A DNA stretch of 64,000 bases from an uncultured Clostridia bacterium. GTDB lineage: Bacteria; Bacillota; Clostridia; TANB77; CAG-508. Below the pieces are notes generated by a model. It searched no databases. It had not been told where the DNA came from and saw nothing but the letters and a program-made list of their open reading frames with translations. The stretch spans positions 99,384-163,383 of the forward strand of contig CANQGP010000001.1 of assembly GCA_947623285.1 (NCBI GenBank). Direction: 5' to 3'. Made by a program: the position numbers and the translations under genes. Each line of letters begins with the position of its first letter. The first letter of the stretch is position 1. Positions 36,835 to 64,000 of the stretch are shown piece after piece.

Positions 36835-37473
36835 ATGAAAAATTTAAGAACAGAAAACAAAGTTATAACATATACAATAAGCAAGGTTGCAGATAGTAAA
36901 GACATGTATATATCAGTACAAAATGGCGAAGTGGAAATTATCGCTCCGTATAATTATTCAAACAAACATATACAAAAAATAATAGAAGAAAAAAGAGATT
37001 GGATTTTAAAAAAAATTGAAGAATATAATTTTAAAAATCCAGAAGAATTTAATGGAATTGAAAGAAATCCTGTTAAAATTTTAGGAAGAGAATATAGAAT
37101 AAAAATTAACTATAAAAATATTAATGTTGCAGAATTAAATGTTGAAGAAAATGATATAAAAATAACTTTATCTAATACATATAAAAGAAAAGACAATAAA
37201 AAAGTTTTAACATTGGCTATAGATAAATTATATGAGAGCATTGCTCCGGCTGAAATTGAAAGAGCTATGGAAAAAACAAGAATTTTATTAGGATATGCAC
37301 CAGAAGATTACAAAATTGCAAAAATAAAAAATGCTTATGCTAAATGCACAAAAAATATTATAACTATAAATCCTGAAATAGTAAAATTCAATAGAAAAAC
37401 AATAGATAAAATTATATTAGAACAATTCTTAAAAATAAGAAAATCATGCATAAAAAAAAGAGTAAATCTGTAA
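36835..37473 (+). CDS. YgjP/DUF45 (M48-like) family protein lacking the HExxH motif
   Basis: The N-terminal pattern (ITYTISKV...YISVQNGEVEIIAPYNYSNKHIQKIIEEKRDWILKK) is typical of DUF45. The position of the HExxH zinc site reads ILEQF, and the protein contains only one His. Confidence 0.5.
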   Translation: MKNLRTENKVITYTISKVADSKDMYISVQNGEVEIIAPYNYSNKHIQKIIEEKRDWILKKIEEYNFKNPEEFNGIERNPVKILGREYRIKINYKNINVAELNVEENDIKITLSNTYKRKDNKKVLTLAIDKLYESIAPAEIERAMEKTRILLGYAPEDYKIAKIKNAYAKCTKNIITINPEIVKFNRKTIDKIILEQFLKIRKSCIKKRVNL

Positions 37474-37834
37474 GCCGGGTTCTGTCATTTAAAATAGTCA
37501 TTTATCTAGAGTATATATCACTATATACTTCAAGCCACACATGTAAGAAGCGCCGAGCAAGCGTATCTTCTAATTTAGGTGTTGCTCCAGATGGGGTTTA
37601 CATTGACCTGCTATGTCACCATAGCAGCGGTGAGCTCTTACCTCACCTTTTCACCCTTACCACGTGTTTCTCAAATTTCTAAGAATTTTGAGAAATATGT
37701 GGCGGTTATTTTCTGTTGCACTTTCCTTAAGGTTGCCCTCACTAGACGTTATCTAGCATCTTTGCTCTATGGAGCCCGGACTTTCCTCTCGTAATTCCTT
37801 TCGGAAATTTACCAGCGACTATTCAATTTACTCT
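37459..37834 (-). ncRNA. rnpB: RNase P RNA, bacterial class A
   Basis: The minus strand contains GAGGAAAGTCCGGGCTCCATAG, GTGCAACAGAAA, GGTAAGGGTGAAA, GGTAAGAGCTCACC, CTAGATAAATGACT and ACAGAACCCGGCTTA. The P1 helix pairs AGAGTAAAT (5') with ATTTACTCT (3'). An extended -10 TGATATAAT (37843-37851) lies just upstream, and a T-run follows the 3' end. Confidence 0.9.
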
Positions 37835-52439: not shown

Positions 52440-52841
52440 TTGAGTAAACTATATGAAGCATATACACAACTGAAAAAAACAGATTCGAAAACAATATACT
52501 TATTTAAAAGTGGCATATTTTTTATCGCATTAAACGAAGATGCCGAATTGCTCTCAAATCTGTTCGATTTAAAAATAAATAATTTAACAACAACAGTAGT
52601 AAAGGCAGGCTTTCCCTGTAACAGCTATGAAAAATATTGCAAACTTTTTAAATCTCATAACTTAACTGTTAAAATTGTTGATATGGAAAGCTTTACAAAA
52701 AGAAACTTCAAAGAATATTCACAAAGCCAGTCACTTGTTGAAATAATAGATAAACTTAATAAAGTAGACCCTAACAATTTGTCAATTACAGAAGCTTACA
52801 AATTTATTGAAGATTTAAAAGAAAAGGTAATAAAAATATGA
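52440..52841 (+). CDS. MutS-domain-I-like DGR accessory protein (MSL type), copy 1
   Basis: 133 aa. IYLFKSGIFFIALNEDAELL...KAGFP aligns to the MutS mismatch-binding domain (LLFYRMGDFYELFYDDA...MAGIP). TTG start 8 nt after GGAGG. The stop overlaps the RT start (ATGA). Confidence 0.6.
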   Translation: MSKLYEAYTQLKKTDSKTIYLFKSGIFFIALNEDAELLSNLFDLKINNLTTTVVKAGFPCNSYEKYCKLFKSHNLTVKIVDMESFTKRNFKEYSQSQSLVEIIDKLNKVDPNNLSITEAYKFIEDLKEKVIKI

Positions 52842-53818
52842 AAAGAAAAGGAAATTTATACCCAGAAATATGCAAATTCGAAAACATATTAGCAGCATAT
52901 AACGAGGTATGTAGAAACACCAGGAACAAAAGAAGAGTAGAAAATTTAAAAGAATATAAATCCGTATATATTTCCAGAGTATATGACACATTAATAAATA
53001 AAAAATACAAGGTAGGCTCTTATAATAAATTCATAATATATGAACCTAAAAAAAGATTGATAGTTAGTCAAAACTCACATGATAAAATAATAAACCACCT
53101 AGTAGCAAGATTCATTTTATATCCGGCGATATTACCATGTCTGCTTGACGTTAATGTAGCAAGTAGAAAAGATATGGGAACCAAAAGAGGTATAGAACTA
53201 GCAAAGGAATTTCATAGAAAATGCAAAGTAAAATATGGAACTTATTACATTTTAAAAGCAGATATAAGCAAATTCTTTGCAAGCATAGACCATGAAAGAT
53301 TAAAAGCAAAATTGGAAAGAAGAATAAAAGATAAAGATGCCTTAAAAATAACTTTTGACATAATAGATAGCAACTCACCTGGGTTATTTATAGGCTCAAT
53401 GACAAACCAAGTATTAGCAATATTTTACCTAAATGATATGGATCACTTTATAAAAGAAAAACTAAAAATAAAATATTACGTTAGATATCAAGATGACTTT
53501 TTATTATTCCACCCTGACAAACAATATTTAAAATACTGCTTAAAAGAAATAGAAAAATTTGTAGAAATGGAAAAATTAAAATTAAATGCTAAAACCAGAA
53601 TTTACAAAAACACAAACAACTTTCTATTCCTTGGTAGAAACCCTAAAGGCAAATACTGCAGATATAGAAATGTAAAAAGAAAACTTAAAGCACGAGCACA
53701 TTTATATGAAGCTGGCCAATTGACATTGGACAGCCTTGCCTCAAGTATTATTTGCTACAAGGGATTATGTGCTCAAAACAAAAACTCTATTGATAAGCTT
53801 TTTAAGAATAGAATTTAA
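52838..53818 (+). CDS. DGR-type reverse transcriptase
   Basis: 326 aa with RT motifs including FIGSMTNQVLAIFYLN (DGR-typical xGxxxSQ-like motif 4) and YVRYQDDFLLF (YxDD). No maturase or endonuclease domains. Confidence 0.85.
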   Translation: MKRKGNLYPEICKFENILAAYNEVCRNTRNKRRVENLKEYKSVYISRVYDTLINKKYKVGSYNKFIIYEPKKRLIVSQNSHDKIINHLVARFILYPAILPCLLDVNVASRKDMGTKRGIELAKEFHRKCKVKYGTYYILKADISKFFASIDHERLKAKLERRIKDKDALKITFDIIDSNSPGLFIGSMTNQVLAIFYLNDMDHFIKEKLKIKYYVRYQDDFLLFHPDKQYLKYCLKEIEKFVEMEKLKLNAKTRIYKNTNNFLFLGRNPKGKYCRYRNVKRKLKARAHLYEAGQLTLDSLASSIICYKGLCAQNKNSIDKLFKNRI

Positions 53819-53876: not shown

Positions 53877-54173
53877 TTAGCTAACTTTTTTTGTTATCTC
53901 TTTTTCTGATAATCCTGTAATATCTGCTATTTCTTCAATTGTCATCCCTCTATCAAGCATCTTCTTGGCAATTTCCATTTTACCCTCTATTCTGCCTTTT
54001 TTCTCGCCTTTCTTTTCTCCTTTTAAGTAAGCTCCTCTTTTATTCATCATTTCATCAAATCTAGCTTTTTCTTTTAACCATAACATTCTCTTAGCTTGTT
54101 CATTTGCTACTGCTTCTTCACGTAACTTTTCTGCTCTTGCTATTTTTTCATTTTCTTTTACAGCCATTTCCAA
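53877..54173 (-). pseudogene. 3' fragment of an Rpn/YhgA-like gene
   Basis: The 98-aa ORF is almost identical to the C-terminus of ORF 57120..57950 (MAVKENEKIARAEKLREEAVANEQ...), with an 8-aa EKKGRIEG insertion. The N-terminal nuclease domain is absent. Confidence 0.7.
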
Positions 54174-54430
54174 TTCCCCCTTATCTCTTTGGCTTATAAA
54201 ACTTCTTTATCTTTCTTATCAATTTTATTGCTGATTTGTTTCAGAGCCTTCAAATATTCTTTTTCCACGGGACTTATAGTCTTAACTTGATATTTCTTAT
54301 ATTCTGCCTTTGCTTTTTCTATTTCCTTCTTTTTGAACCTGTCGAAAATTCTGACAAGTTGATTTTTTATCAAGTTCCTCTTCTAAATAAAAAAATGTCA
54401 GATTTTACGGAGAATATAGGAAAATATTGA

Positions 54431-55288
54431 TTACAATTTTTCTATTTCCTCTTTTGTTAGTTCTGTTAACTCTTCAATTTCCTTAACAGACATACCTTTT
54501 GCTTTCATTTTTTTTGCTATTTGCTTTTGTTTGTTTTTTTCACCTTCAGCACGTCCTTCTTCAGTTGCTATTTCTAAATCCATCTCTCGGTCAAATCTTA
54601 TTCTATCTTTTATTCGCAAAATTTCTCTTGTTTCTGGGTCTGCTAATGCTTCTTTCAATAATTTTTCTGCTTTTGCTACTTTATCATTTTCTTCAATCGC
54701 CATTTCAAGTTCCTCCTTATTTTCTTGGCTTATGAAATATAACCATTGAGATAGTTTTTTCTTGTCTTTTTTATTTTGTTTTAAAAATTTTGGTAGTTGT
54801 ATAAAATACATTTGTATTTTATCTGACATTACTGTTTTATCACTGTCCCATCTAAATCTTGCACTATCTATGTAATTATTTCTTCCAGCTATATTGTATG
54901 ATAATATACTAACTATTATTACTTCTTTGTTGTTTTTATACCCCTCGCCTTCTTTCATTTCTTCTGTATATAAATTCGAAGCATAATATATATCTCTATC
55001 CTCCATGTCTTTTTTGTCTACTATTTGCATTTCAACATCTACTATTTTGTGTTCATCTATTGTTACTTTTAAGTCTATTCTTCCACCTTTTGTATCATTA
55101 TACATTTTTTCTAATGTATACTCATTTGTAATATTTATATTATTAATTTTTATATTTAATATTTCTTCTAGCATTTCTTGTAGCATATCTTCATTTCCCT
55201 TAGATGCAAAGATTTTTTGAAATAAAAAATCATTTTGTGGGGTCATTGATTTATCTACCTTATTTTTTTCTAATTGGTTATTGTTCAT
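54431..55288 (-). CDS. Rpn/YhgA-like PD-(D/E)XK recombination-promoting nuclease (putative transposase family), copy 1
   Basis: PQNDFLFQKIFASKGNEDMLQEMLEEIL... plus a C-terminal helical HTH-like tail. The ATG at 55288 lies 7 nt after AGGAGG. Confidence 0.7.
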   Translation of the reverse strand: MNNNQLEKNKVDKSMTPQNDFLFQKIFASKGNEDMLQEMLEEILNIKINNINITNEYTLEKMYNDTKGGRIDLKVTIDEHKIVDVEMQIVDKKDMEDRDIYYASNLYTEEMKEGEGYKNNKEVIIVSILSYNIAGRNNYIDSARFRWDSDKTVMSDKIQMYFIQLPKFLKQNKKDKKKLSQWLYFISQENKEELEMAIEENDKVAKAEKLLKEALADPETREILRIKDRIRFDREMDLEIATEEGRAEGEKNKQKQIAKKMKAKGMSVKEIEELTELTKEEIEKL

Positions 55289-55488
55289 TAAATTCCTCCT
55301 TATTTTAACACTTTTCGTTTTTTTACGCAAGTGTTTAATTTTACTTTGTATGTTTATTAGCACAATTTTCTTACAATTAAATTTTAAAATTTTCTTTGGA
55401 TTTTGTTTCTGAAACGAAACTAATAGATTTTGAATTTTGAAAAAAATAAATCATTTATAATTTTGTCCATTACTTTAAAAGCATTTCC

Positions 55489-55516
55489 ATTATATAACTT
55501 TTTAAATTAATGTCAA
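55489..55516 (-). promoter_or_regulatory. Promoter of Rpn copy 1
   Basis: The minus strand reads TTGACA (55511-55516), a 16-nt spacer, then TATAAT (55489-55494). This is a mirror image of 56920..56947. Confidence 0.55.
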
Positions 55517-55898
55517 TACTTACAATGCAAGAATTCATCGCAAATATTGACATTTTTCGACAAATAAAAAATAGCACTAATTTGTGCTATAAAAACAGTT
55601 ATAAATTAAATTAAGAATAAAATTTAGTTTTGAACCGTCAAGAAATCCTTGACAGTTGAAATTTCTTCTAATTCTTCCTCGTCAAAAATATTTTTTATAT
55701 GTAAGCTAATATTTTGCTTTGTTGTATTAAATAATTCAATCTTTTTTTGAAAAGTGCTAAATAAATATACTCCTGATTAGTAGGAATTATTTTACTAATA
55801 TTGCCTAAAATGTTATAAGCAGAATCTTCTAGGCTCATAGTTGTTACATTTTTATAAGTAATAAAAAATGAATATTATTAATAAGAGAAATAAAATGT

Positions 55899-56310
55899 TT
55901 GCAAAAATTGGTAAAAAATGGTATAAATATTGTGGGTATGATTGACACTGTTTGCAATGGCTTCTGGTTAGCTTCTCCTTCAGCCAACAACACTAACAAT
56001 GTTATGCTTGTGAACTATAACGGCAATGTCAGCAATAACAACTATAACAATAACAATTATAGCTTGCGCCCCGTAGCTTCCAAAAAACTGTGGTTGCATT
56101 GAACTAAGGTAATGCAAGAGAAGTTTTGGAGGAAACAAATCATATCCATTAATGGATTTATAAGATAAAAATACAAAAAATTATTGACAATTTTTATAAG
56201 TCTAATTATAAAATAAAAATAGATAATCAAGCTTGTTAGTAAAATTAATATTTGAAAGGAAGTTTAATTTAGGACTGTTTTTAATAGTACTTGGGATAGT
56301 GCTATTTTTT
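55899..56310 (+). repeat. DGR TR-like cassette A1 (promoter, 124-nt TR at 55953..56076, conserved spacer, terminator)
   Basis: TTGCAA-17-TATAAA promoter (55899-55927). The 124-nt segment is colinear with the VR and rich in AAC/AAT codons. Hairpin TTGCATT/AATGCAA at 56094-56117. Terminal hairpin plus T-run at ~56284-56310. Confidence 0.75.
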
Positions 56311-56460
56311 ATTGTATGGAAGAAAAATAGCTAGATTTTTAAATATACAACAATGTTATTTTTTCTATATTTATGCGATTATAAAGCAACTTATACATGT
56401 ATCCAAGTAAATTTTATAAATAATAAAAAATGAATGTTATTAATAAGTGGAATAAATTGT

Positions 56461-56872
56461 TTGCAAATATTGGTAAAAAATGGTATAAATATTGTGGGTA
56501 TGATTGACACTGTTTGCAATGGCTTCTGGTTAGCTTCTCCTTCTGCCAACAACACCGACAATGTTATGCGTGTGAACTATAACGGCAATGTCAACAATAA
56601 CAACTATAACAATACCAACTATAGCTTGCGCCCCGTAGCTTCCAAAAAACTGTGGTTGCATTGAACCAAGGTAATGCAAGAGAAGTTTTGGAGGAAACAA
56701 ATCATATCCGTTAATGGATTTGTAAGATAAAAATACAAAGAATTTTATTGATGATTCTTACAAGTCTAATTATAAAATAAAAATAGATAATCAAGCTTGT
56801 TAGTAAAATTAATATTTGAAAGGAAGTTTGATTTACAACTGTTTTTATAGCACAAATTAGTGCTATTTTTAT
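56461..56872 (+). repeat. DGR TR-like cassette A2 (TR at 56515..56638), best match to the VR
   Basis: Same architecture as A1. By-eye alignment to the VR gives 16 differences, 13 of them at TR adenines. Terminator ATAGCAC..GTGCTAT-T5 at ~56847-56870. Confidence 0.75.
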
Positions 56873-56919
56873 TTGTCAAAAAATGTCAATATTTGCGATG
56901 AATTATTGCATTGTAAGTA

Positions 56920-56947
56920 TTGACATTAATTTAAAAAGTTATATAAT
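56920..56947 (+). promoter_or_regulatory. Promoter of Rpn copy 2
   Basis: TTGACA, a 16-nt spacer, then TATAAT, followed by a ~165-nt leader. Confidence 0.55.
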
Positions 56948-57119
56948 GGAATTGCTTTTAGAGTTAATAGACAAAATTAAAATGATTTATTTTTTTCAAA
57001 ATTCAAAAGTTCCGAATCAGGAACGAATATCCAAAAAAATTAATAATTTTACGAAAGTTTTTATTTATTTAGCACTTGAAAGATAAGCTAAAAATATGTT
57101 AAAATAAAGGAGATATATA

Positions 57120-57950
57120 TTGGAAAAATATAACATACATGAGACACCACAAGATGATTATCTATTTCAAAGAATATTTGCATCAAAGGGAAATGAAGAT
57201 ATGCTAGCGGAAATATTAGAAGATTTGCTAGACATAAAAATAAATAATATAGAAATAAAAAATGAATTTACACTAGAAAAAATTTATCAAGAAGAAAAAA
57301 GTTCAAGAATAGATATAAAAGTGGTGGCAGATAATAGAATAATAGATATAGAAATGCAGATAAAGAATGAATATAATATGAAGGATAGGAGCTTATATTA
57401 TGGAGCTGCATTATATCATGAAGCATTAGAAGAAGGAATAGATTATAAAGATAGCAAAGAGGTTATAGTAATAAGTATATTATCATTTAACTTATTTAAA
57501 AATGGAAACTACCTGGTTAGAGGGAGAATAATGCGAGATGATATAAAAGATGAAGTAATAACAGATAAACTAAGTTTTTATTACATACAATTACCAAAAT
57601 TTCTAAAACAAAAAGATAAAAAAAGAAAGAAATTGGCTCAATGGTTATATTTTATAAGCCAAAGAGATAAGGGGGAATTGGAAATGGCTGTAAAAGAAAA
57701 TGAAAAGATAGCAAGGGCAGAAAAATTACGTGAAGAAGCAGTAGCAAATGAACAAGCTAAGAGAATGTTATGGTTAAAAGAAAAGGCTAGATTTGATGAA
57801 ATGATGAATAAAAGAGGAGCTTACTTAAAAGGAGAAAAGAAAGGTAAAATGGAAATTGCCAAGAAGATGCTTGATAGAGGGATGACAATTGAAGAAATAG
57901 CAGATATTACAGGATTATCAAAAAAAGAGATAACAAAAAAAGTCAGCTAA
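57120..57950 (+). CDS. Rpn/YhgA-like PD-(D/E)XK recombination-promoting nuclease, copy 2
   Basis: 276 aa with PQDDYLFQRIFASKGNEDMLAEILEDLL.... TTG start 6 nt after AAGGAG. Paralogue of 54431..55288. Confidence 0.7.
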   Translation: MEKYNIHETPQDDYLFQRIFASKGNEDMLAEILEDLLDIKINNIEIKNEFTLEKIYQEEKSSRIDIKVVADNRIIDIEMQIKNEYNMKDRSLYYGAALYHEALEEGIDYKDSKEVIVISILSFNLFKNGNYLVRGRIMRDDIKDEVITDKLSFYYIQLPKFLKQKDKKRKKLAQWLYFISQRDKGELEMAVKENEKIARAEKLREEAVANEQAKRMLWLKEKARFDEMMNKRGAYLKGEKKGKMEIAKKMLDRGMTIEEIADITGLSKKEITKKVS

Positions 57951-57982
57951 GATAAGTTTAATTTAAAACTGAATAGTGTAAA

Positions 57983-58030
57983 ATAAAGTGTGTAAGTTAT
58001 CAGTAACAAAACTTATGCACTTTATTTATA
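57983..58030 (+). terminator. Terminator after Rpn copy 2
   Basis: 16-bp stem ATAAAGTGTGTAAGTT / AACTTATGCACTTTAT (two G-U pairs), followed by a T-rich tail. Confidence 0.5.
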
Positions 58031-58096
58031 CTACTAACTTAATAAAAAAGTGAGTAACTTTACACAAACTTTCCGATATTTTCACATTTTCTATAC

Positions 58097-58505
58097 AATA
58101 AAAAATAGTACTCATTTCAAGTACTATTAAAAACAGTTGTAAATCAAACTTCCCTTCAAATATTAATTTTACTAACAAGCTTGATTATCTATTTTCATTT
58201 TATAATTAGACTTATAATAACTATCAGTAAAAATATTTGTATTTTATCTTAAATAATTTTTTATAAATCCAATTAAAGGACATAATTTGTTTCCTCCAAA
58301 ACTTCTCTTGCATTACCTTAGTTCAATGCAACCACAGTTTTTTGGAAGCTACGGGGCGCAAGCTAAGGTTGTTATTGTTATAGTTGTTACGGTTGATATT
58401 GCCGTTATAGTTCACATTCATAACCCAGTCAGTGTTATCAGCGGAAGGAGAAGCTAACCAGAAGCCAACGCAAACAGTGTCAATTATGCCCTTATTATTT
58501 TTATA
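58097..58505 (-). repeat. DGR TR-like cassette B1 (TR at 58349..58472)
   Basis: Reverse complement of the A-type unit: TR, conserved spacer, and a terminal hairpin at 58104-58128. It keeps the TATAAA -10 (58500-58505) but has no clear -35. Confidence 0.7.
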
Positions 58506-58511
58506 TTAAAA

Positions 58512-58910
58512 TTTTAAAAATAGCACTGATTAGTGCTATTAAAAACAGTCATAAACCAAACTTCCCTTCAAATATTAATTTTACTAACAAACTTGATTAT
58601 CTATTTTTATTTTATAATTAGACTTATAATAACTATCAGTAAAAATCTTTGCATTTTATTTTTATAAATCGAATTAAAGGACATAATTTGTTTCCATCCA
58701 AAACTTCTCTTACATTACCTTAGTTCAATGCAACCACAGTTTTTTGGAAGCTACGGGGCGCAAGCTAATGTTGTTATTGTTATAGTTGTTGTTGCCGACA
58801 TAGCCGTTATAGTTCACATTCATAACATTGTTAGTGCCGTTAGCGGAAGGAGAAGCTAACCAGAAGCCCCAGCAAACAGTTTCAATTATACCCATTTTTT
58901 ATATTATTTT
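58512..58910 (-). repeat. DGR TR-like cassette B2 (TR at 58751..58874)
   Basis: Same unit. The terminator hairpin at 58520-58539 abuts cassette B1. Confidence 0.7.
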
Positions 58911-59004
58911 TCTTTTGTATTCAAAACTAATTAAGTACACTTTATAATATCTATCTCAAATTTTTTTAGTTATTTTGTGAATATAATCTTGTGGTTAATT
59001 TTTA

Positions 59005-59345
59005 TAAATAAAAATAGCACTAGTTTTCGTGCTATAAAAACATTTATAAATCAAATTTCCTTTCAAATATTAATTTTACTAACAAATTTGACTATATGTT
59101 TTTATTTTATAAATAAATTATTTTCAAATTTATTTAAAAGACATGACTTGTTTCCATCCAAAACTTCTCTTGCATTACCTTAGTTCAATGCAACCACAGT
59201 TTTTTGGAAGCTACGGGGCACAAGCTAAGATTGTTATTGTTATAGTTCGTATTGTTGACATTGCCGTTATAGTTCACATACATAACATTGTTAGTGTTGT
59301 TAGCGGAAGGAGAAGCTAACCAGAAGCCATTGCAAGCAATTTCAG
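59005..59345 (-). repeat. DGR TR-like cassette B3 (TR at 59211..59334), in the canonical position just downstream of avd
   Basis: Same unit, but the distal spacer is more diverged. It is the only copy whose 3' GC-rich end reads GCTTGTGCCCCGTAG (T instead of C) rather than the VR sequence. Confidence 0.7.
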
Positions 59346-59474
59346 CCATGCCTTAATTATTTTATTAACAAATGAAATTTATTTGAGTTGTTATCAACCG
59401 GAAGGATTTCCGATTACTTAACATTTTCGATAGTCTCATTTAAAAATATTCCATTTAATTTAAATAATTGCCTT

Positions 59475-59894
59475 TTATCCTTCTACTGTTACTTTATATC
59501 CTGATGTTTTCTTTACCTCAGTAGCATCAAATTGTTTAGTAGATTTCCCTGCTTTTAATTTTTTCATCCAACCAGTTGTATATTTAGTTATATCATCCAA
59601 TCTTTGTGCTAATTTAAAATATTTCTTTTCCGTTATTAATTTTTTATCATAACTTAAATTCACTAAAAAATCTATAACCTTAACTTTTGCTATCATTTTT
59701 AATATTAATTTTACTTTATATTCTCTTTCTTCAGTAGCATTAGCTTCATATGAAGTCTCCAATAAATCAAATGTATTAGTCCTTATTCTATGTTTTATTT
59801 CAATATCTTTTTTAGGATAATTTTCAAGTTCTTTATCTATTACTAAAATAAAATCTCTAATAAATTGAATAACTCTAAACTTATCTTCTCTCAT
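59475..59894 (-). CDS. avd: DGR accessory variability determinant (Avd, four-helix-bundle protein)
   Basis: 139 aa, basic and all-helical (FRVIQFIRDFILVIDKELENYPKKD...KYFKLAQRLDDITKYTTGWMKKL). It lies between the target gene and the TR. Confidence 0.7.
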   Translation of the reverse strand: MREDKFRVIQFIRDFILVIDKELENYPKKDIEIKHRIRTNTFDLLETSYEANATEEREYKVKLILKMIAKVKVIDFLVNLSYDKKLITEKKYFKLAQRLDDITKYTTGWMKKLKAGKSTKQFDATEVKKTSGYKVTVEG

Positions 59895-59900
59895 TTTACT

Positions 59901-60335
59901 TTAACCTTCCTTTATGACTTTTTCAATATTTAATATTTTTTTATTAAAATCTTTTTCATACATGTTTTTCATCAAATATTCATTTATCATATCAATTTTT
60001 CTTTTGCAGTTTACATATCTCCTTGCTTTTTGGTCAAATCTTTCATATCTATTTAAATTTCTATAATTTACTTTATCTTCAACATCATAATTATTTCTTC
60101 TATCAATCGTTATATAATTTATTTTATTATCCTCCAATCGTCTCATCACTTTTGAAATAGCATTAATAGGGAATCCACATTCTACAATATTATCATCTAT
60201 GTTTTTCACTTTATAATCAAAAAAATATGATAAAATATATGCATCTTTTCCAAAAACATGATAAAACCCTCCCATTCTAAACAAACATATATCTTTTGTA
60301 TGAATTTGTTTTATGCTTTTTATCATTTCATTCAT
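59901..60335 (-). CDS. MutS-domain-I-like DGR accessory protein (MSL type), copy 2
   Basis: 144 aa. ICLFRMGGFYHVFGKDAYIL...ECGFP aligns to MutS domain I. It ends 6 nt before the avd start. Confidence 0.6.
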   Translation of the reverse strand: MNEMIKSIKQIHTKDICLFRMGGFYHVFGKDAYILSYFFDYKVKNIDDNIVECGFPINAISKVMRRLEDNKINYITIDRRNNYDVEDKVNYRNLNRYERFDQKARRYVNCKRKIDMINEYLMKNMYEKDFNKKILNIEKVIKEG

Positions 60336-60578: not shown

Positions 60579-63500
60579 TTAGCTAATATTCCATTTGTTA
60601 TTTGAACCCTTTGTGATTGAAACAGATTCGGGAAGATAAACTACGGGGCGCAAGCTATAGTTGGTATTGTTATAGGTGCTAGTGTTGACACTGCCGCCAT
60701 AGCCCACACGCATAACACTGCTAGCGTAGTTAGCAGAAGGAGAAGCTAACCAGAAGCCATAGCAATTATTCCAAGCGGAATTCGTGCTAGGATGAGGATA
60801 ATAAAGAGTATTCTTCCAACCCGCATATTTCTGTATAACTGAACCATCTATATAAGTTGAAGTTCCTTTATCTGATGTACTTATAAAATATCCGGTGGTC
60901 GTTGGGGTTGCATTGCAATATATCTTCTCTGTTGGATATTTAGCATTCCAACTTGCACACCATAATTCAATCGTCGGACTTCCTATTGCCTGTGCTCCTT
61001 TAGATTTTAGATCTGATGTTACAAATTGATTTGTCCATACACTTGTATCTAATAATTCTGCTACTGCTTTTGTATTATTTTGTGATTGACTCTTTGCTTT
61101 ATCGTAATATGCTCTTGTGAAGAATCTATCCGCTAAGGTTGTAGAAGTAATTACATCCGCTATTGAATTACGTTTCCATCCACTTCCTGACCAATACACA
61201 TTATATGTATTACCTTTCGTCATACTTGTTCCTGATGGAAGATTAGAATTATTCATATAATCTCCTGCTATTAAATATTTGTCTCCTCCATTTGCGTAGA
61301 ATAATTTCCAATCTGTTATTCCTCCGCATGAATAATTTGTATCTCCTCCAAATTCTTCAGGGTCTGAAGGTTTAACCGCAGTTTCCCAAACTGCATACAA
61401 TGTCAAATCTTTTTCTTCTGATACACTAATTTCATCTCCTGCTGAACTCTTTGGATATGTTGGATTTGAACTTTGCCCTGAACTTGTACTCCATCCAAGG
61501 AAGTTAAATCCTTCTTTTGTCGGTTCTGTTGTTGTTAATTTTGGCTTATCGTATTCGATACTTGTGCCACTATAGTTTTTATATGCTGTTCCCTCGGAAT
61601 CAGGAATTGTATTACTAGTTCCATTTTTTCCGTCTTGCAAATCATATTTGATTTTTACTGTTTTCTGATATGTCTGATAGTACTCTGCACTTTCTTTGAC
61701 TTGGCCTATTGAAGCGTTATTGTCATATGATTTTTCGGCTTTTGCAGAAGTTCCATCAGATGCCCAGTATCTATTATTATATCCACTTGGTTTTTGAGTA
61801 TCTCCTGGTTGTCCAAGGTTTACATTTTTTGGATATTGTGGGCTATTTCCTACTGATTTTATTGTGAATGTTAAATCATCCATTGTTGCAGATTGCCATA
61901 CATGTCTTGTTATTTTCTCTGTTTTTGTATGTCTTGCATAATATGTTATATATGGATTTGTTTCACCATTTGCTAAATTAATTTTTGTTTCTTCATATCC
62001 ATCTGATGTTTTTACCCATCCGTCGAATGTCCATGCTCCCGTATCTGAAGGTGTTTTTATTGTGCTTCCAGATGGTGCATTCGTTATTGCTAATCCCTTT
62101 GTTTCTTCATTAGCACGAAGTAATGCTTGTGCATTTACTTTTTGGGTTGAATTGTCTCCAAATGTATATGTTATTTCTACTGGATATGTATAAACCATGT
62201 GATATGTTGTGTCATTAAATAGTTCTTCAGTTGGTTCTCCACCTAATGCTACATCTGGGTCTGCTGTTATAGCAGAGGTGCTCTTTAGCCATCCTTTAGG
62301 TGTTGCTGTTACATTTTTTGAGCTATTTATTGATGCACTTACTGTATCACTTGCACTTCCTCCTAAGTTTGGTTTTACTCCTGTTGCTTCACCTTTGTAG
62401 TTTCCTACAACTGTTGTATTTCCTACCTGACTTTCGGTGTTTTTATATGTTACTTTTGTTATTTTTATATCTTTCTTATATACTGCATAATACGTTGTTC
62501 CTAGTTGTACTGTAGGAGTTACTGGATCTGAACCTGTTTCTACATTTGTTACTCCCACATAAGGTATTCCATCTTTTCCTGTACTATTTGAAACTGCTAG
62601 TGGAACTGTTATTTTTTCATCATCTTCTATTTTTCCTGCATAGTTCATTTTTGCTCCTACAGAAGTTGTTGTTCCTGCGCTAGAAGGTTCTCCATTATAT
62701 CTAAATGTTATTGTTTGTGTTGATTCATATAATGCATAATATTTTGCATCTTCTAATGCTTCTATTTCTTTATCATTTGCTGTAATTGTATCTGGTGTTG
62801 GGTCATCTTTATCTGTTTCTGCAGCCCATCCTCTTGATGTATAATTCGTATTTGCTGTTGGGGCATGTCCTATGCTTTTCTTAAATGCTACTGTCGTATT
62901 ATCATATTTTTTATATGCTGGACCTGTCAATGGTTCCATTGTTGCACTATCTCCATCTTGTGTACCGTTGTAAATGACTCTAGTTACTGTTACTTGCTTA
63001 CTATATAATGCATAGTAATCTATATCAGTTGCTGGAGAAGCTGGTGCTTTATTTGGATGTTGTGCTGAAGGCTCTAAATCTTTTTCTGCCTCTAGTACCC
63101 ATCCTTGGAACTCCCATGTTGCATCTTCTGTATCTGTTGGTGCTTGTAGAGTTGCACCTGTTTGAGTATTTTTATAATCTATCGTTTTATTAGGATTTTC
63201 TACTTGTGTTTTACCTTTATAATGGTATGTTACGGTTATTCCTTTTTGATATACCATATAGTAGTTATAAGCTGCTGCTTCTGCATCTAATTCTATTTCT
63301 GCTTTATTTCCTTTTATTTCAACAAATGCGTCAGTTACAGCTGCATCTGCTTGGTTTGACCAACCTTTTGCTGTAAATCCATCTTCTAATCCTACTGTAG
63401 GTGTTGTATCTCCTGTTTGTAGGTCTACTTTAGGTTTTACTAAACTGTCGTCACTGTAACTTCTATATGCTGTTGCATTTATAACCTCTAATGATTTATT

Positions 63501-64000
63501 TAAGTAAACTGTTCTGTTTACTGTTAAGTCTTTCTTAAATGTTGCTGTTAATGTATCACTTTTATCTGTAACACCTACTGCTGGGTCTACTATTGAGCTT
63601 TCGTCTGTCAAGTCATCTGGGTTTGTTGTCCAACCTCTCCATGACCAACCTTTGCTTTCTAATTCTGGTGGAACTGTAGGGTTTTGAATTGATGGGTCTA
63701 ATCCTCCACCTTGATTATTTCCTTCTGAGTCGGTGTATACATCTTGTTGTTTTTGTTCTGTTTGTCCATCTCCTGTTTGTACTTGTGTTGAAATTGAGTG
63801 TTTATATATTGCATAATAATTTGTATCTTGTAATATTTGTGCATCTCCATTATTTTCAACATCTGGTTTTTGTACATCTGCTCCACTTTGTAAGTTTTTC
63901 AAAAACCAACCAACTGGCTCTGCTGTTTCTCCATCTATTGTTGCATTATCTGCTTTTCCTAAGTTTATTGTTGCTGGCTGTGGCTTATATGTTTGAGATG
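60579..64000 (-). CDS. DGR target: large surface protein with Listeria-Bacteroides (InlB B-repeat / Flg_new) repeats and a C-terminal variable ligand-binding module; 5' end outside the window
   Basis: The frame stays open to the right edge, so the M at 63902 is a TTG artefact. At least 8 repeats end in (G/R)W...D, and the last reads EGFNFLGWSTSSG...DLTLYAVWE. The C-terminus is NCYGFWLASPSANYASSVMRVGYGGSVNTSTYNNTNYSLRPVVYL. Confidence 0.8.
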   Translation of the reverse strand, partial: SQTYKPQPATINLGKADNATIDGETAEPVGWFLKNLQSGADVQKPDVENNGDAQILQDTNYYAIYKHSISTQVQTGDGQTEQKQQDVYTDSEGNNQGGGLDPSIQNPTVPPELESKGWSWRGWTTNPDDLTDESSIVDPAVGVTDKSDTLTATFKKDLTVNRTVYLNKSLEVINATAYRSYSDDSLVKPKVDLQTGDTTPTVGLEDGFTAKGWSNQADAAVTDAFVEIKGNKAEIELDAEAAAYNYYMVYQKGITVTYHYKGKTQVENPNKTIDYKNTQTGATLQAPTDTEDATWEFQGWVLEAEKDLEPSAQHPNKAPASPATDIDYYALYSKQVTVTRVIYNGTQDGDSATMEPLTGPAYKKYDNTTVAFKKSIGHAPTANTNYTSRGWAAETDKDDPTPDTITANDKEIEALEDAKYYALYESTQTITFRYNGEPSSAGTTTSVGAKMNYAGKIEDDEKITVPLAVSNSTGKDGIPYVGVTNVETGSDPVTPTVQLGTTYYAVYKKDIKITKVTYKNTESQVGNTTVVGNYKGEATGVKPNLGGSASDTVSASINSSKNVTATPKGWLKSTSAITADPDVALGGEPTEELFNDTTYHMVYTYPVEITYTFGDNSTQKVNAQALLRANEETKGLAITNAPSGSTIKTPSDTGAWTFDGWVKTSDGYEETKINLANGETNPYITYYARHTKTEKITRHVWQSATMDDLTFTIKSVGNSPQYPKNVNLGQPGDTQKPSGYNNRYWASDGTSAKAEKSYDNNASIGQVKESAEYYQTYQKTVKIKYDLQDGKNGTSNTIPDSEGTAYKNYSGTSIEYDKPKLTTTEPTKEGFNFLGWSTSSGQSSNPTYPKSSAGDEISVSEEKDLTLYAVWETAVKPSDPEEFGGDTNYSCGGITDWKLFYANGGDKYLIAGDYMNNSNLPSGTSMTKGNTYNVYWSGSGWKRNSIADVITSTTLADRFFTRAYYDKAKSQSQNNTKAVAELLDTSVWTNQFVTSDLKSKGAQAIGSPTIELWCASWNAKYPTEKIYCNATPTTTGYFISTSDKGTSTYIDGSVIQKYAGWKNTLYYPHPSTNSAWNNCYGFWLASPSANYASSVMRVGYGGSVNTSTYNNTNYSLRPVVYLPESVSITKGSNNKWNIS
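60641..60764 (-). repeat. DGR variable repeat (VR), 124 nt, ending in the GC-rich IMH-like GCTTGCGCCCCGTAG
   Basis: Colinear with the five TR segments. Homology stops exactly after CCCCGTAG. Most differences from the TRs fall where the TR has A. Confidence 0.8.

Follow-up and report, generated by a model that had tools for sequence, protein, structure and literature searches.

The stretch of DNA analysed here, referred to below as the window, covers 64 kb; the contig it comes from is at least 184 kb long. It very likely carries, on the chromosome of an uncultured gut Clostridia bacterium of low GC content, a diversity-generating retroelement (DGR) in which a single template repeat (TR) has grown into five complete DGR-RNA genes. 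Its gene set consists of a reverse transcriptase (RT), Avd, two MutS-like (MSL) genes, and one surface-protein gene bearing the variable region (VR). The first MSL accessory gene (52440..52841, + strand; Pfam MutS_I, E=3.8e-9) lies immediately 5′ of the RT gene and overlaps its start, and the same gene is found ahead of the RT in related loci. The RT itself (326 aa; 52838..53818, + strand; Pfam RVT_1, E=9e-13) has 2179 homologues at E<=1e-20; its close homologues number in the hundreds, each lying beside a TR/VR pair, phage DGR RTs, those of Bordetella phages included, are distant tblastn matches, and the hallmark motif GxxxSQ reads GSMTNQ in the window as against GSMTSQ in relatives. On the minus strand, the avd accessory gene (59475..59894; Pfam bAvd, E=3.7e-9) scores 37.5 bits, slightly below the 40-bit cutoff, with Avd homologues being annotated as PF22296; its product has 139 aa compared with 113-120 aa in single-TR relatives, and its position upstream of the TR is conserved. 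The second MSL accessory gene (59901..60335, - strand; Pfam MutS_I, E=3.1e-9) lies next to it, and the target gene is represented by its 3′ part (60579..64000, - strand), an ORF running to the window end. The full target protein has 2663 aa in related assemblies and is a surface protein with Listeria-Bacteroides repeats (PF09479), the C-terminal domain of which yielded only a sub-threshold match to Pfam DUF6273 and no PDB relative. The VR (60641..60765, - strand) occupies the 3′ end of this gene, with 62 nt between its end and the stop of the ORF, and folding of its 3′ flank gave no hairpin or cruciform (z +2.1 and +1.4). It is the sole VR in the window: a second one was not found in these 64 kb, nor in the 20-kb loci of this strain and of the sister strain introduced below, and further VRs in remote parts of the genome are not excluded.

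The DNA between the RT and avd genes contains five cassettes of ~350-400 nt on opposed strands (A1 and A2 on the plus strand; B1, B2, and B3 on the minus strand), and a blastn comparison of unit A1 with the other four units gives E values of 1e-97 to 0, far beyond chance. Their anatomy is shown computationally, and follows the order leader, 125-nt TR, covariation-supported spacer, closing helix, further hairpin, and intrinsic terminator. Cassette A1 (55899..56311, + strand; spacer model match 111.7 bits) consists of a promoter-like motif at 55899-55927, leader at 55934-55942, TR at 55952-56076, spacer at 56061-56148, and terminator at 56284-56309, with a closing helix of 11 bp (GTGGGTATGAT/ATCATATCCAT). 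Cassette A2 (56461..56872, + strand; 109.9 bits) has the corresponding parts at 56461-56489 (promoter-like), 56496-56504 (leader), 56514-56638 (TR), 56623-56710 (spacer), and 56847-56870 (terminator). Read on the minus strand, B1 (58097..58505; 111.8 bits) has its leader at 58483-58491, TR at 58349-58473, spacer at 58277-58364, and terminator at 58101-58127, and B2 (58512..58910; 105.9 bits) has them at 58885-58893, 58751-58875, 58678-58766, and 58516-58539, respectively. B3 (59005..59353, - strand; 102.6 bits), the avd-proximal cassette in the canonical TR position, has its leader at 59345-59353, TR at 59211-59335, spacer at 59138-59226, and terminator at 59010-59035. A sixth remnant (55563-55610, - strand), recognised by a tail match and a terminator-like site, retains only a unit tail with its terminator hairpin (55567-55590). 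The mean pairwise identity among the cassettes is 95% in the spacer, 88% in the TR, and 73% in the tail; overall the copies diverge by 5-20%, with unit-specific compensatory pairs and distinct flanks, and identical flanks of 19-23 nt are common to the cassettes and the VR. B3 alone is mutated in the GC-rich 3′ element (C>T), a change absent from every VR. An earlier, sequence-only reading had described five units at essentially these coordinates and orientations, each with a hairpin and T-run terminator and a near-invariant spacer containing the hairpin TTGCATT/AATGCAA. All of this held, with the terminators located in 5/5 units and the spacer being their best-conserved part; its placement of B3 after avd also held, B3 starting ~120 nt past the avd stop codon. 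Its TR length of 124 nt is corrected to 125 nt and its end of B3 from 59345 to 59353.

Three Rpn-family elements accompany the cassettes. The RT is separated from them by an Rpn-family PD-(D/E)XK nuclease/transposase gene (54431..55363, - strand; Pfam PDDEXK_2, E=4e-43), an insertion with no counterpart in the RT-TR interval of single-TR relatives. A second Rpn-family gene, inverted (57120..57950, + strand; Pfam PDDEXK_2, E=6e-45), forms the right arm of an inversion module and has a perfect TTGACA-16-TATAAT promoter at 56920-56947, and the C-terminal HTH part of a further Rpn-family gene (53877..54173, - strand; HTH_Rpn_C in the precomputed annotation) forms an inverted repeat with 57650-57844 (98%). 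The left inverted-repeat arm (55428..55610, - strand), composed of an Rpn promoter region and the cassette-tail remnant, has its inverted repeats at 56827-57008, and window positions 56456-57950 correspond to the reverse of positions 14261-12743 of L001 (93.7%). The two opposed arrays that had been claimed are present as a layout, which we favour reading as a secondary inversion between inverted Rpn-gene modules. A functional opposed orientation of A1 and A2 was considered and rejected: the segment is bracketed by these modules, and the seven cassettes of the sister strain lie on one strand.

The RNA encoded by the cassettes was examined with a covariance model built on the TR 3′ end and the spacer, which scores 102-112 bits on every window unit and matches once per locus in about 75 related loci. 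Covariation is shown: the spacer structure is 91% paired across 83 distinct sequences, with compensatory changes at 14 of its 17 pairs, and none of 500 shuffled controls reached the observed values. The helix between the leader and the post-spacer segment comprises 9-11 bp in 5/5 window units, with compensatory differences between units, and reaches at least 10 contiguous bp in 33/78 units compared with 2.4% of shuffled controls; all helices reappear when A2 is folded by free energy (z=-3.2). No curated family covers the cassette RNA, Rfam at the gathering threshold reporting RNase P alone in the window and nothing at the DGR locus, and a search of the phage collection with cassette DNA gave no match.

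Separate expression of the units, as the sequence-only reading had proposed, is inferred only from conserved promoter-like motifs and terminators, there being no expression data. The motifs themselves were correctly described: A1 and A2 carry the full TTGCAA-17-TATAAA, with a TG a short way 5′ of TATAAA, and TATAAA is kept in both B1 (without a -35 element, as in cassette T2 of the sister strain) and B2 (with TTGAAT at a spacing of 15 nt). The general form TTGnnn-17-TGnTATAAA sits 6-11 nt before the leader in A1, A2, and the sister-strain cassettes T3-T7, and is missing in 47/48 single-TR relatives, in which the leader directly follows the avd stop codon. A generic promoter scan was uninformative in this AT-rich window (58 sites, 58.6 expected), and did not list the A1 and A2 sites because their TATAAA lacks the canonical final T; the terminators called by a scanner were those of A2, B3, and the sixth remnant.

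Which cassettes are in use can be judged from natural variation between samples. The window is colinear with three independent assemblies, from ERZ27249395, ERZ27249389, and ERZ27249386; all five cassettes are base-identical among the four, and variation is shown to be restricted almost wholly to the VR, which holds 32 of the 36 variable columns over 12 kb (within 60658-60735). Donors were assigned by the length of the VR 3′ tract that can be explained by adenine-only change from a given cassette. This tract extends over 81 nt with A2 in the window (any other cassette, <=19 nt), 76 nt with B1 in L009 from ERZ27249395 (<=40 nt), and 86 nt with B2 in L010 (<=18 nt), and all 53 nt available in L011 fit B2, so that B2 is the 3′ donor in both ERZ27249389 and ERZ27249386. 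Within these donor tracts 8-11 discriminating non-A markers are retained and 0 violated, alongside 3-13 adenine changes. Mosaics are also shown: in one VR allele the 5′ 39 nt are best explained by B3, this allele being a B3+B2 mosaic. The 5′ 44 nt common to the window and ERZ27249395 VRs have no perfect cassette, with one non-A mismatch to A1 and one to B3.

A sister strain whose RT protein is identical to that of the window supplies the comparison of cassette number that had been proposed as a check, carrying seven tandem cassettes (the same in three assemblies) instead of five. Over 10.5 kb, all but two of its differences fall within the VR. One of its VR alleles is explained by T4 across all 128 nt (other cassettes, <=21 nt), another by T3 (5′ 60 nt) plus T7 (3′ 94 nt), and a third by T5 (5′ 60 nt) plus T1 (3′ 85 nt). 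The last of these shows that length is transferred as well: it yields a VR of 122 nt, and the sister cassettes are 125, 128, or 131 nt, so that its length matches no single cassette. Shared-marker counts for this strain were set aside, being inflated by register shifts between cassettes of unequal length. Across both strains, the seven VR alleles show tracts of 53-128 nt with 3-21 adenine changes and zero non-adenine changes relative to the assigned cassette, and the spectrum of changes is dominated by A>G (24/34 and 32/43 changes). All VR sequences are metagenome consensus sequences, and mixed populations could blur the exact junctions of the mosaics.

We therefore consider it very likely that the cassettes are alternative, actively used templates for one VR, and not decaying duplicates or an artefact, because VR alleles track different cassettes and the arrays are identical across assemblies. 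The sequence-only reading had likened the units to silent cassettes feeding a DGR, and this is supported by VR alleles with the non-A markers of different cassettes; of the two outcomes it had named as refuting, an assembly artefact failed on the identical arrays in four (five-cassette) and three (seven-cassette) assemblies, and activity of the avd-proximal copy alone failed at the level of use, given the footprints of A2, B1, B2, T3, T4, T5, and T7. DGR function does not depend on an array, because most relatives have one TR: a single TR is present in about 75 related loci, and further arrays were seen in two relatives, L074 (three cassettes) and L112 (five). The nearest RT relatives (P0002 and P0010) proved to be single-TR loci only, a metagenome scan with a 24-nt spacer word returned three single-TR relatives and no new arrays or VR alleles, and a protein look-up with MSL-2 produced no new VR alleles.

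The protein-RNA steps, including cDNA synthesis by RT-Avd, are inferred by analogy with the Bordetella phage DGR. RT-Avd, probably together with the MutS-like proteins, would bind each cassette RNA, and reverse transcription would start at the 3′ end of the TR, nucleotides being misincorporated opposite adenines, here mostly as A>G changes. The cDNA would then replace the VR of the sole target gene, anchored at the common GC-rich 3′ element GCTTGCGCCCCGTAG and with a 5′ crossover point that varies. Since every cassette is a possible donor, a series of such events would generate mosaic VRs with the newest donor at the 3′ end and older donors 5′ of it. The adaptive value of such an array is likewise inferred. 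The cassettes differ at non-adenine positions and so lock different residues, among them Trp codons, which lie beyond the reach of adenine mutagenesis of AAY; since they differ at these positions and, in the sister strain, in length, the array may shift the VR among search sub-spaces and lengths.

Among the rival explanations, the one that survives best is that each TR serves its own target and the extra cassettes act mainly on VRs elsewhere in the genome, which is unlikely as a replacement for the alternative-template reading but could hold alongside it. In its favour, every TR has a VR of its own in published multi-TR cases (PMC12386605, PMC6642488), and only part of the contig was examined; against it, the window and the 20-kb loci of either strain contain no other VR, one and the same VR was written by at least three cassettes in the window strain and five in the sister strain, and all cassettes share flanks with that VR. 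It is very unlikely that B3 alone is the working TR and the others are silent, decaying copies produced by tandem duplication and Rpn-associated rearrangement. Single-TR relatives do place their TR right after avd, in the position of B3, B1 lacks a -35 element, and cassette tails are just 73% identical; however, VR alleles bear the markers of A2, B1, and B2 and, in the sister strain, of T3, T4, T5, and T7, all of them distal, the GC-rich 3′ element mutation unique to B3 is carried by no VR, and the spacer (95% identity) and closing helix are kept in all cassettes via compensatory changes. Also very unlikely is DNA-level gene conversion of the RecA type, as in pilS/pilE or vls, with adenine mutagenesis as a separate and later process. 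Mosaic VRs from several silent donors are its expected outcome, and the 19-23-nt identical flanks would suit it, but tracts differ from their donors at donor adenines only (3-21, none non-A) with a uniform A>G-biased spectrum, later mutagenesis by a different TR would erase the non-A markers of the donor, and plus-strand A2 and minus-strand B1 and B2 donate alike, as a trans-acting RNA predicts. An assembly artefact, in which a short-read assembler expanded or mis-joined one TR, is all but excluded: although every sequence is a metagenome assembly and contigs of relatives frequently break near RT or avd, each array recurs across its assemblies, its copies are 5-20% different with unit-specific compensatory pairs and distinct flanks, and arrays occur in other lineages too (L074, three; L112, five).

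The alternative-template reading places the locus between two families of systems. DGRs are generally described as having a single fixed template that supplies one or more VRs, and because the template is fixed their diversity is confined to adenine positions and to one length. The locus meets the descriptive criteria of a clade RT beside repeats, TR/VR differences at TR adenines, a VR at the 3′ end of the target with variation confined there, and an Avd accessory protein, and departs from the family description in lacking a single, invariant, donor-only TR (five or seven cassettes; T3 derived from T5, as discussed below). It resembles the Bordetella phage BPP-1 DGR (mtd VR, avd, one TR, brt) in the transfer from a non-coding TR to a C-terminal VR by RT and Avd with adenine-specific substitutions, in the GC-rich 3′ element of TR and VR, in partial 3′-anchored replacement, and in the structured spacer RNA after the TR. 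In contrast to the one invariant TR of BPP-1, the window has five (the sister strain seven), each forming its own RNA gene equipped with a terminator and, in some cases, a promoter-like motif; the donors vary in length and at non-adenine positions, TRs can be overwritten, and no hairpin was detected 3′ of the window VR. The MSL DGRs (Architecture D of Wu et al. 2018, PMC5758913; Bacteroides Bfr/Bth/Bun, bioRxiv 10.1101/2024.11.15.621889) likewise combine a small MutS-domain-I-like protein with Avd, whereas two MSL paralogues are present in the window, the first beside the RT gene and the second beside avd; the relevant sections of these two papers report no TR arrays. More than one TR near one RT is known from SKA14 (PMC6642488) and the crAss-like phage Lera (PMC12386605), and VRs matched by two or more TRs were already noted in PMC11661182. 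Such cases were read as one TR per VR, decayed pairs, or a technical nuisance, some being dropped from cassette-architecture analysis, and include neither an array of full RNA genes nor evidence of alternative TRs writing the same VR. The claim that such an array had not been described agrees with the literature searched, in which we found no published description.

Silent-cassette antigenic variation is familiar from Neisseria pilS to pilE, the Borrelia vls cassettes to vlsE, and Treponema tprK. The locus shares with these systems several non-expressed donors (here five or seven) and one expression site, segmental one-way transfer, mosaics, and donors that are stable in the short term. Those systems rely on DNA gene conversion and faithful copying, a point on which the locus departs from them: each copy deviates from its donor solely at adenines, under a single A>G-biased spectrum, which indicates RT-mediated transfer. 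The window locus would instead employ RNA and an error-prone RT, each copy being adenine-randomised, and its donors are inferred to be transcribed non-coding RNAs. Cassette switching and targeted hypermutation, strategies thought to be separate, are thereby combined, and alternative templates can change locked residues, add adenine-unreachable ones, alter VR length, and recombine into mosaics. Donors on either strand and several kb from the RT work, meaning that the gene for a DGR RNA can be autonomous and act in trans. This bears on how gut bacteria vary giant surface proteins, on how extra TRs are counted and filtered in DGR surveys, and on engineered DGR mutagenesis, for which multiplexed template RNAs are already under construction.

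The cassettes have themselves changed. Among the positions at which cassettes differ, adenines are enriched only 3.4-3.5-fold, and ordinary mutation or selection also shapes them, because non-A columns vary too (14 in the window strain and 21 in the sister strain). In its 3′ 94 nt, T3 differs from T5 at 13 sites, all of them T5 adenines (12 A>G, 1 A>T). This signature is shown, and from these 13 adenine-only differences we conclude that T3 is an adenine-mutagenised copy of T5 and that templates can be rewritten; rare overwriting of cassettes by mutagenised cDNA would be the route of their diversification. A bolder reading, for which the evidence does not quite tip the balance, holds that the array is a rewritable template memory whose cassettes are occasionally overwritten in this way. 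If it were true, a working variant could be 'saved' as a partly locked template and the VR later reset and re-randomised around the saved copy, amounting to a heritable search strategy with two tiers within a system of bacterial hypermutation, and breaking with the rule of TR protection from homing. Observations pointing in this direction are the T5-to-T3 signature and, in the L074/L110 lineage, adenine-poor cassette cores, one of which accounts for 38 of the 87 differences between two near-identical assemblies.

The locus is a DGR, and hence not a new kind of system, and is, with high confidence, a multi-cassette, combinatorial DGR, a clear and seemingly undescribed variant in which transcription and cDNA synthesis from each cassette are inferred. 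The DGR occupies 52.4-64 kb of the window (27% G+C) and is flanked by the chromosomal housekeeping genes ftsY, UPF0182, pgi, and pyk. It consists of a MutS-like accessory (MSL) gene coupled to RT (52440-52841, +), RT itself (52838-53818, +), two Rpn-family genes or fragments (-) between RT and A1, the template-RNA cassettes A1 (55899-56310, +) and A2 (56461-56872, +), a third Rpn gene (57120-57950, +), cassettes B1 (58097-58505, -), B2 (58512-58910, -), and B3 (59005-59345, -), avd (59475-59894, -), a second MSL gene coupled to avd (59901-60335, -), and the 3' end of the target gene (60579 onward, -), which encodes 2663 aa in related assemblies. The sequence-only reading had placed the five units at these positions, which held; a sixth remnant comprises a cassette tail and terminator (55563-55610, -), and when one unit is searched by blastn across the full window, the only variable region (VR) returned is that at 60641-60765.

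MSL genes are already known (PMC5758913), and the presence of two MutS-domain-I-like genes in one DGR is shared with the sister-strain locus L001 (other relatives lay outside the comparison). RT residues ~186-191 (53390-53410) read GSMTNQ, compared with GSMTSQ in 15 relatives and the DGR hallmark GxxxSQ, despite which the element is, with high confidence, clearly active. Avd measures 139-148 aa in the array-bearing lineage versus 113-120 aa in single-TR relatives, carrying a C-terminal extension (59475-59894; P0122-P0127). The sister strain's locus lacks an equivalent of a short ORF or gene fragment of ~47 codons (MSLEDSAYNILGN...) that sits between A1 and the left inverted module at ~55620-55839 (-), and the sole Rfam match in the window is a bacterial class A RNase P RNA (37455-37834, -; 295 bits).

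Exact-protein look-ups traced this locus to independently assembled metagenomes with the same strain, ERZ27249395 (L009), ERZ27249389 (L010), and ERZ27249386 (L011), all colinear with the window. An assembly collapse or expansion artefact, which would have refuted the array, was checked for and is ruled out, since the five cassettes are identical in all of them. Over 12 kb, 32 of 36 variable columns fall within 60658-60735, inside the VR, and the DGR is active.

The second alternative, that only the avd-proximal copy works, fails on the VRs themselves. For each cassette we determined the longest 3'-anchored VR tract compatible with it, allowing changes at cassette adenines only. The window VR points to A2 (81 nt compatible; best other cassette 19 nt), that of L009 to B1 (76 nt; 40 nt), that of L010 to B2 (86 nt; 18 nt), and that of L011, of which 53 nt are available, also to B2 (53 nt; 18 nt). 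The donor tracts retain all of their 8-11 discriminating non-adenine markers and have 3-13 adenines changed. Only B3 fits the 5' 39 nt of the L010 VR, and for the 5' 44 nt common to L009 and the window, A1 and B3 each fit once a single additional substitution is allowed. Donors are found on either strand, as far as 4.7 kb from the VR, which is what a trans-acting RNA would predict. The use of several cassettes as templates for one VR is therefore well supported.

Cassette number varies between related strains, a comparison the sequence-only reading had asked for: L001, whose RT protein is the same as the window's (98.5% DNA identity around RT), carries seven tandem cassettes (T1-T7), all on the avd strand, against five in the window, and differs in target C-terminus, avd, and TR family. 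Across its assemblies ERZ27249657, ERZ27249662, and ERZ27249187 the cassettes are identical and all but two differences over 10.5 kb lie within the VR. One VR allele derives from T3 (5' 60 nt) and T7 (3' 94 nt), another from T4 over all 128 nt (others <=21 nt), and a third from T5 (5' 60 nt) and T1 (3' 85 nt). Cassette lengths in this strain are 125, 128, or 131 nt; the T5+T1 allele unites two short forms and so has a VR of 122 nt (protein of 2638 versus 2640 aa), a kind of change that adenine mutagenesis from one TR cannot make. Multi-cassette use thus recurs with a different TR family, and in both strains A>G is the favored change (24/34 and 32/43 changes).

Each unit is a complete DGR RNA gene, and selection acts on the copies as RNAs. 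From units of the window, L001, and relatives we built a covariance model spanning the 3' end of the TR and the spacer; it scores 102-112 bits on all five window units and matches exactly once per locus in about 75 related loci. Pairing in the structure is 91% across 83 distinct sequences, with compensatory changes in 14 of 17 pairs, and 0/500 shuffles matched the observed values. The leader (AGGGYATRRT), which immediately precedes the TR, forms a second, long-range helix with the stretch that directly follows GAAACAAA of the spacer; this helix spans 9-11 bp in 5/5 window units with compensatory differences between them (A1/A2 GTGGGTATGAT/ATCATATCCAT, B1 AAGGGCATAAT/ATTATGTCCTT, B3 AAGGCATGGC/GTCATGTCTT) and reaches at least 10 contiguous bp in 33/78 units versus 2.4% of controls. 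When the 380-nt A2 RNA is folded by free energy (z=-3.2), the leader helix and the hairpins of the spacer reappear, together with one more hairpin and the terminator. Conservation peaks in the spacer, at 95% mean pairwise identity versus 88% for TR and 73% for tail.

Separate expression of the cassettes, also proposed from sequence alone, held only in part: promoter-like motifs are present, without direct evidence of transcription. A TTGnnn-17-TGnTATAAA motif closely precedes the leader (by 6-11 nt in the sequences compared) in A1, A2, and five of seven sister-strain cassettes, and is missing in 47 of 48 single-TR relatives examined. In the latter the leader lies within about 20 nt of the avd stop codon, which would presumably place the TR on the avd transcript. 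B3 and T1 retain this position behind avd (the avd-to-B3-leader gap is ~120 nt), and B1 and T2 show no promoter-like sequence beyond a -10-like element, which immediately follows the preceding terminator. The sequence-only claims of a promoter-like motif with both elements on A1/A2 and of TATAAA on B1 stand. Because the final T of a canonical -10 is missing and a generic promoter scanner passed over the element, separate transcription remains a reasoned inference, not a result. Overall, the earlier observation is confirmed and its silent-cassette-like interpretation supported; direct evidence of transcription and cDNA from each cassette is missing. A further promoter-like TTGACA-17-TATAAA lies inside A1 (56184-56212), downstream of the spacer, with a weaker copy in A2 (56748-56776); the corresponding segment is deleted in T5 and T6, so it is probably not essential.

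The cassettes also appear to be recipients. Among paralogues, majority-A columns vary 3.4-3.5 times more often than others (Fisher p=0.007 and 0.002). Over its 3' 94 nt, T3 departs from T5 at 13 sites, each an adenine in T5 (A>G at 12, A>T at one), a directional pattern found in no other ordered cassette pair, and T3 has 7 AAY codons versus 14-16 in neighboring cassettes. It therefore seems highly probable that T3 was overwritten by a mutagenised copy of T5, conceivably by direct TR-to-TR homing or via a VR allele. Cassettes are stable on the time-scale separating the samples, so such overwriting must be much rarer than VR homing. In L074 (1-1200, 3160-3520), a relative with three cassettes that shares its RT protein with L110, TR cores are adenine-poor (A 0.16-0.21, 0-5 AAY codons, versus 0.30-0.37 and 12-18 in most single-TR relatives); these two assemblies are 98.3% identical over 5.6 kb, with 38/87 mismatches in one cassette core (L074 about 800-999), which could be a template being rewritten. 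Neither contig contains a VR.

Each cassette by itself permits about 10^19-10^22 protein variants, so the benefit of the array does not lie in sheer count. What differs between cassettes is which positions are locked: 2 is V (B1), W (B2), or free; 16 is W (B1); 19 is L (A1), R (A2), C/F/S/Y (B3), or free; and 36 is Y-type (A1/A2), L (B1/B3), or F/I/L/V (B2). They also supply Trp, unobtainable by AAY mutagenesis. A Stenotrophomonas DGR has two TRs and six VRs (PMC6642488), and a crAss-like phage has TR1-3 paired to VR1-3, the extra pairs being read as decayed (PMC12386605). Alternative-template arrays writing one VR, and TR rewriting, were not found in the literature searched, where several TRs receive only passing mention; most subscription journals lay outside it and absence is not proof, and to that extent the claim that the array is undescribed holds.

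Compared with the sister strain, the window carries [Rpn, A2, A1] in the opposite orientation, and this segment is bracketed by inverted modules, each comprising a cassette tail, Rpn promoter region, and Rpn gene (I3, I6, I9, I10, I20). As its orientation is the same in 4/4 assemblies of the window's strain, these give no evidence of ongoing flipping. The inverted arms within the Rpn copies (54007-54201 and 57650-57844) are 98% identical and contain the remaining 4 of the 36 variable columns, the sole non-VR differences between assemblies (54066, 57707, 57716, 57725), which points to continuing gene conversion between the copies. Single-TR relatives lack Rpn genes, as does the array of L112, a relative of L074, so arrays can form without these genes.

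Scanning one genome per species with an RT profile yielded 80 loci, all in uncultured gut Clostridia MAGs (human, rabbit, mouse, goat, chicken), with the usual layout of RT, one TR on the opposite strand, avd, MSL, and VR. Arrays occur only in the window's species (5 or 7 cassettes), L074 (3), and L112 (5). The closest Avd homologues lie on contigs of 0.5-1 kb, and short-read assemblies break at such repeats, so arrays are probably under-counted. In L112 (2140-4150; JGI metagenome 3300010163) five tandem cassettes follow RT directly on the same strand, about 385 nt apart, with adenine-rich TRs differing at a subset of codons; this array is an independent one in another lineage. In L102 (1500-4470), the nearest other RT relative (80% identity) stands in tandem with a second RT of 365 aa that has its own MSL and Avd, forming two DGRs back to back.
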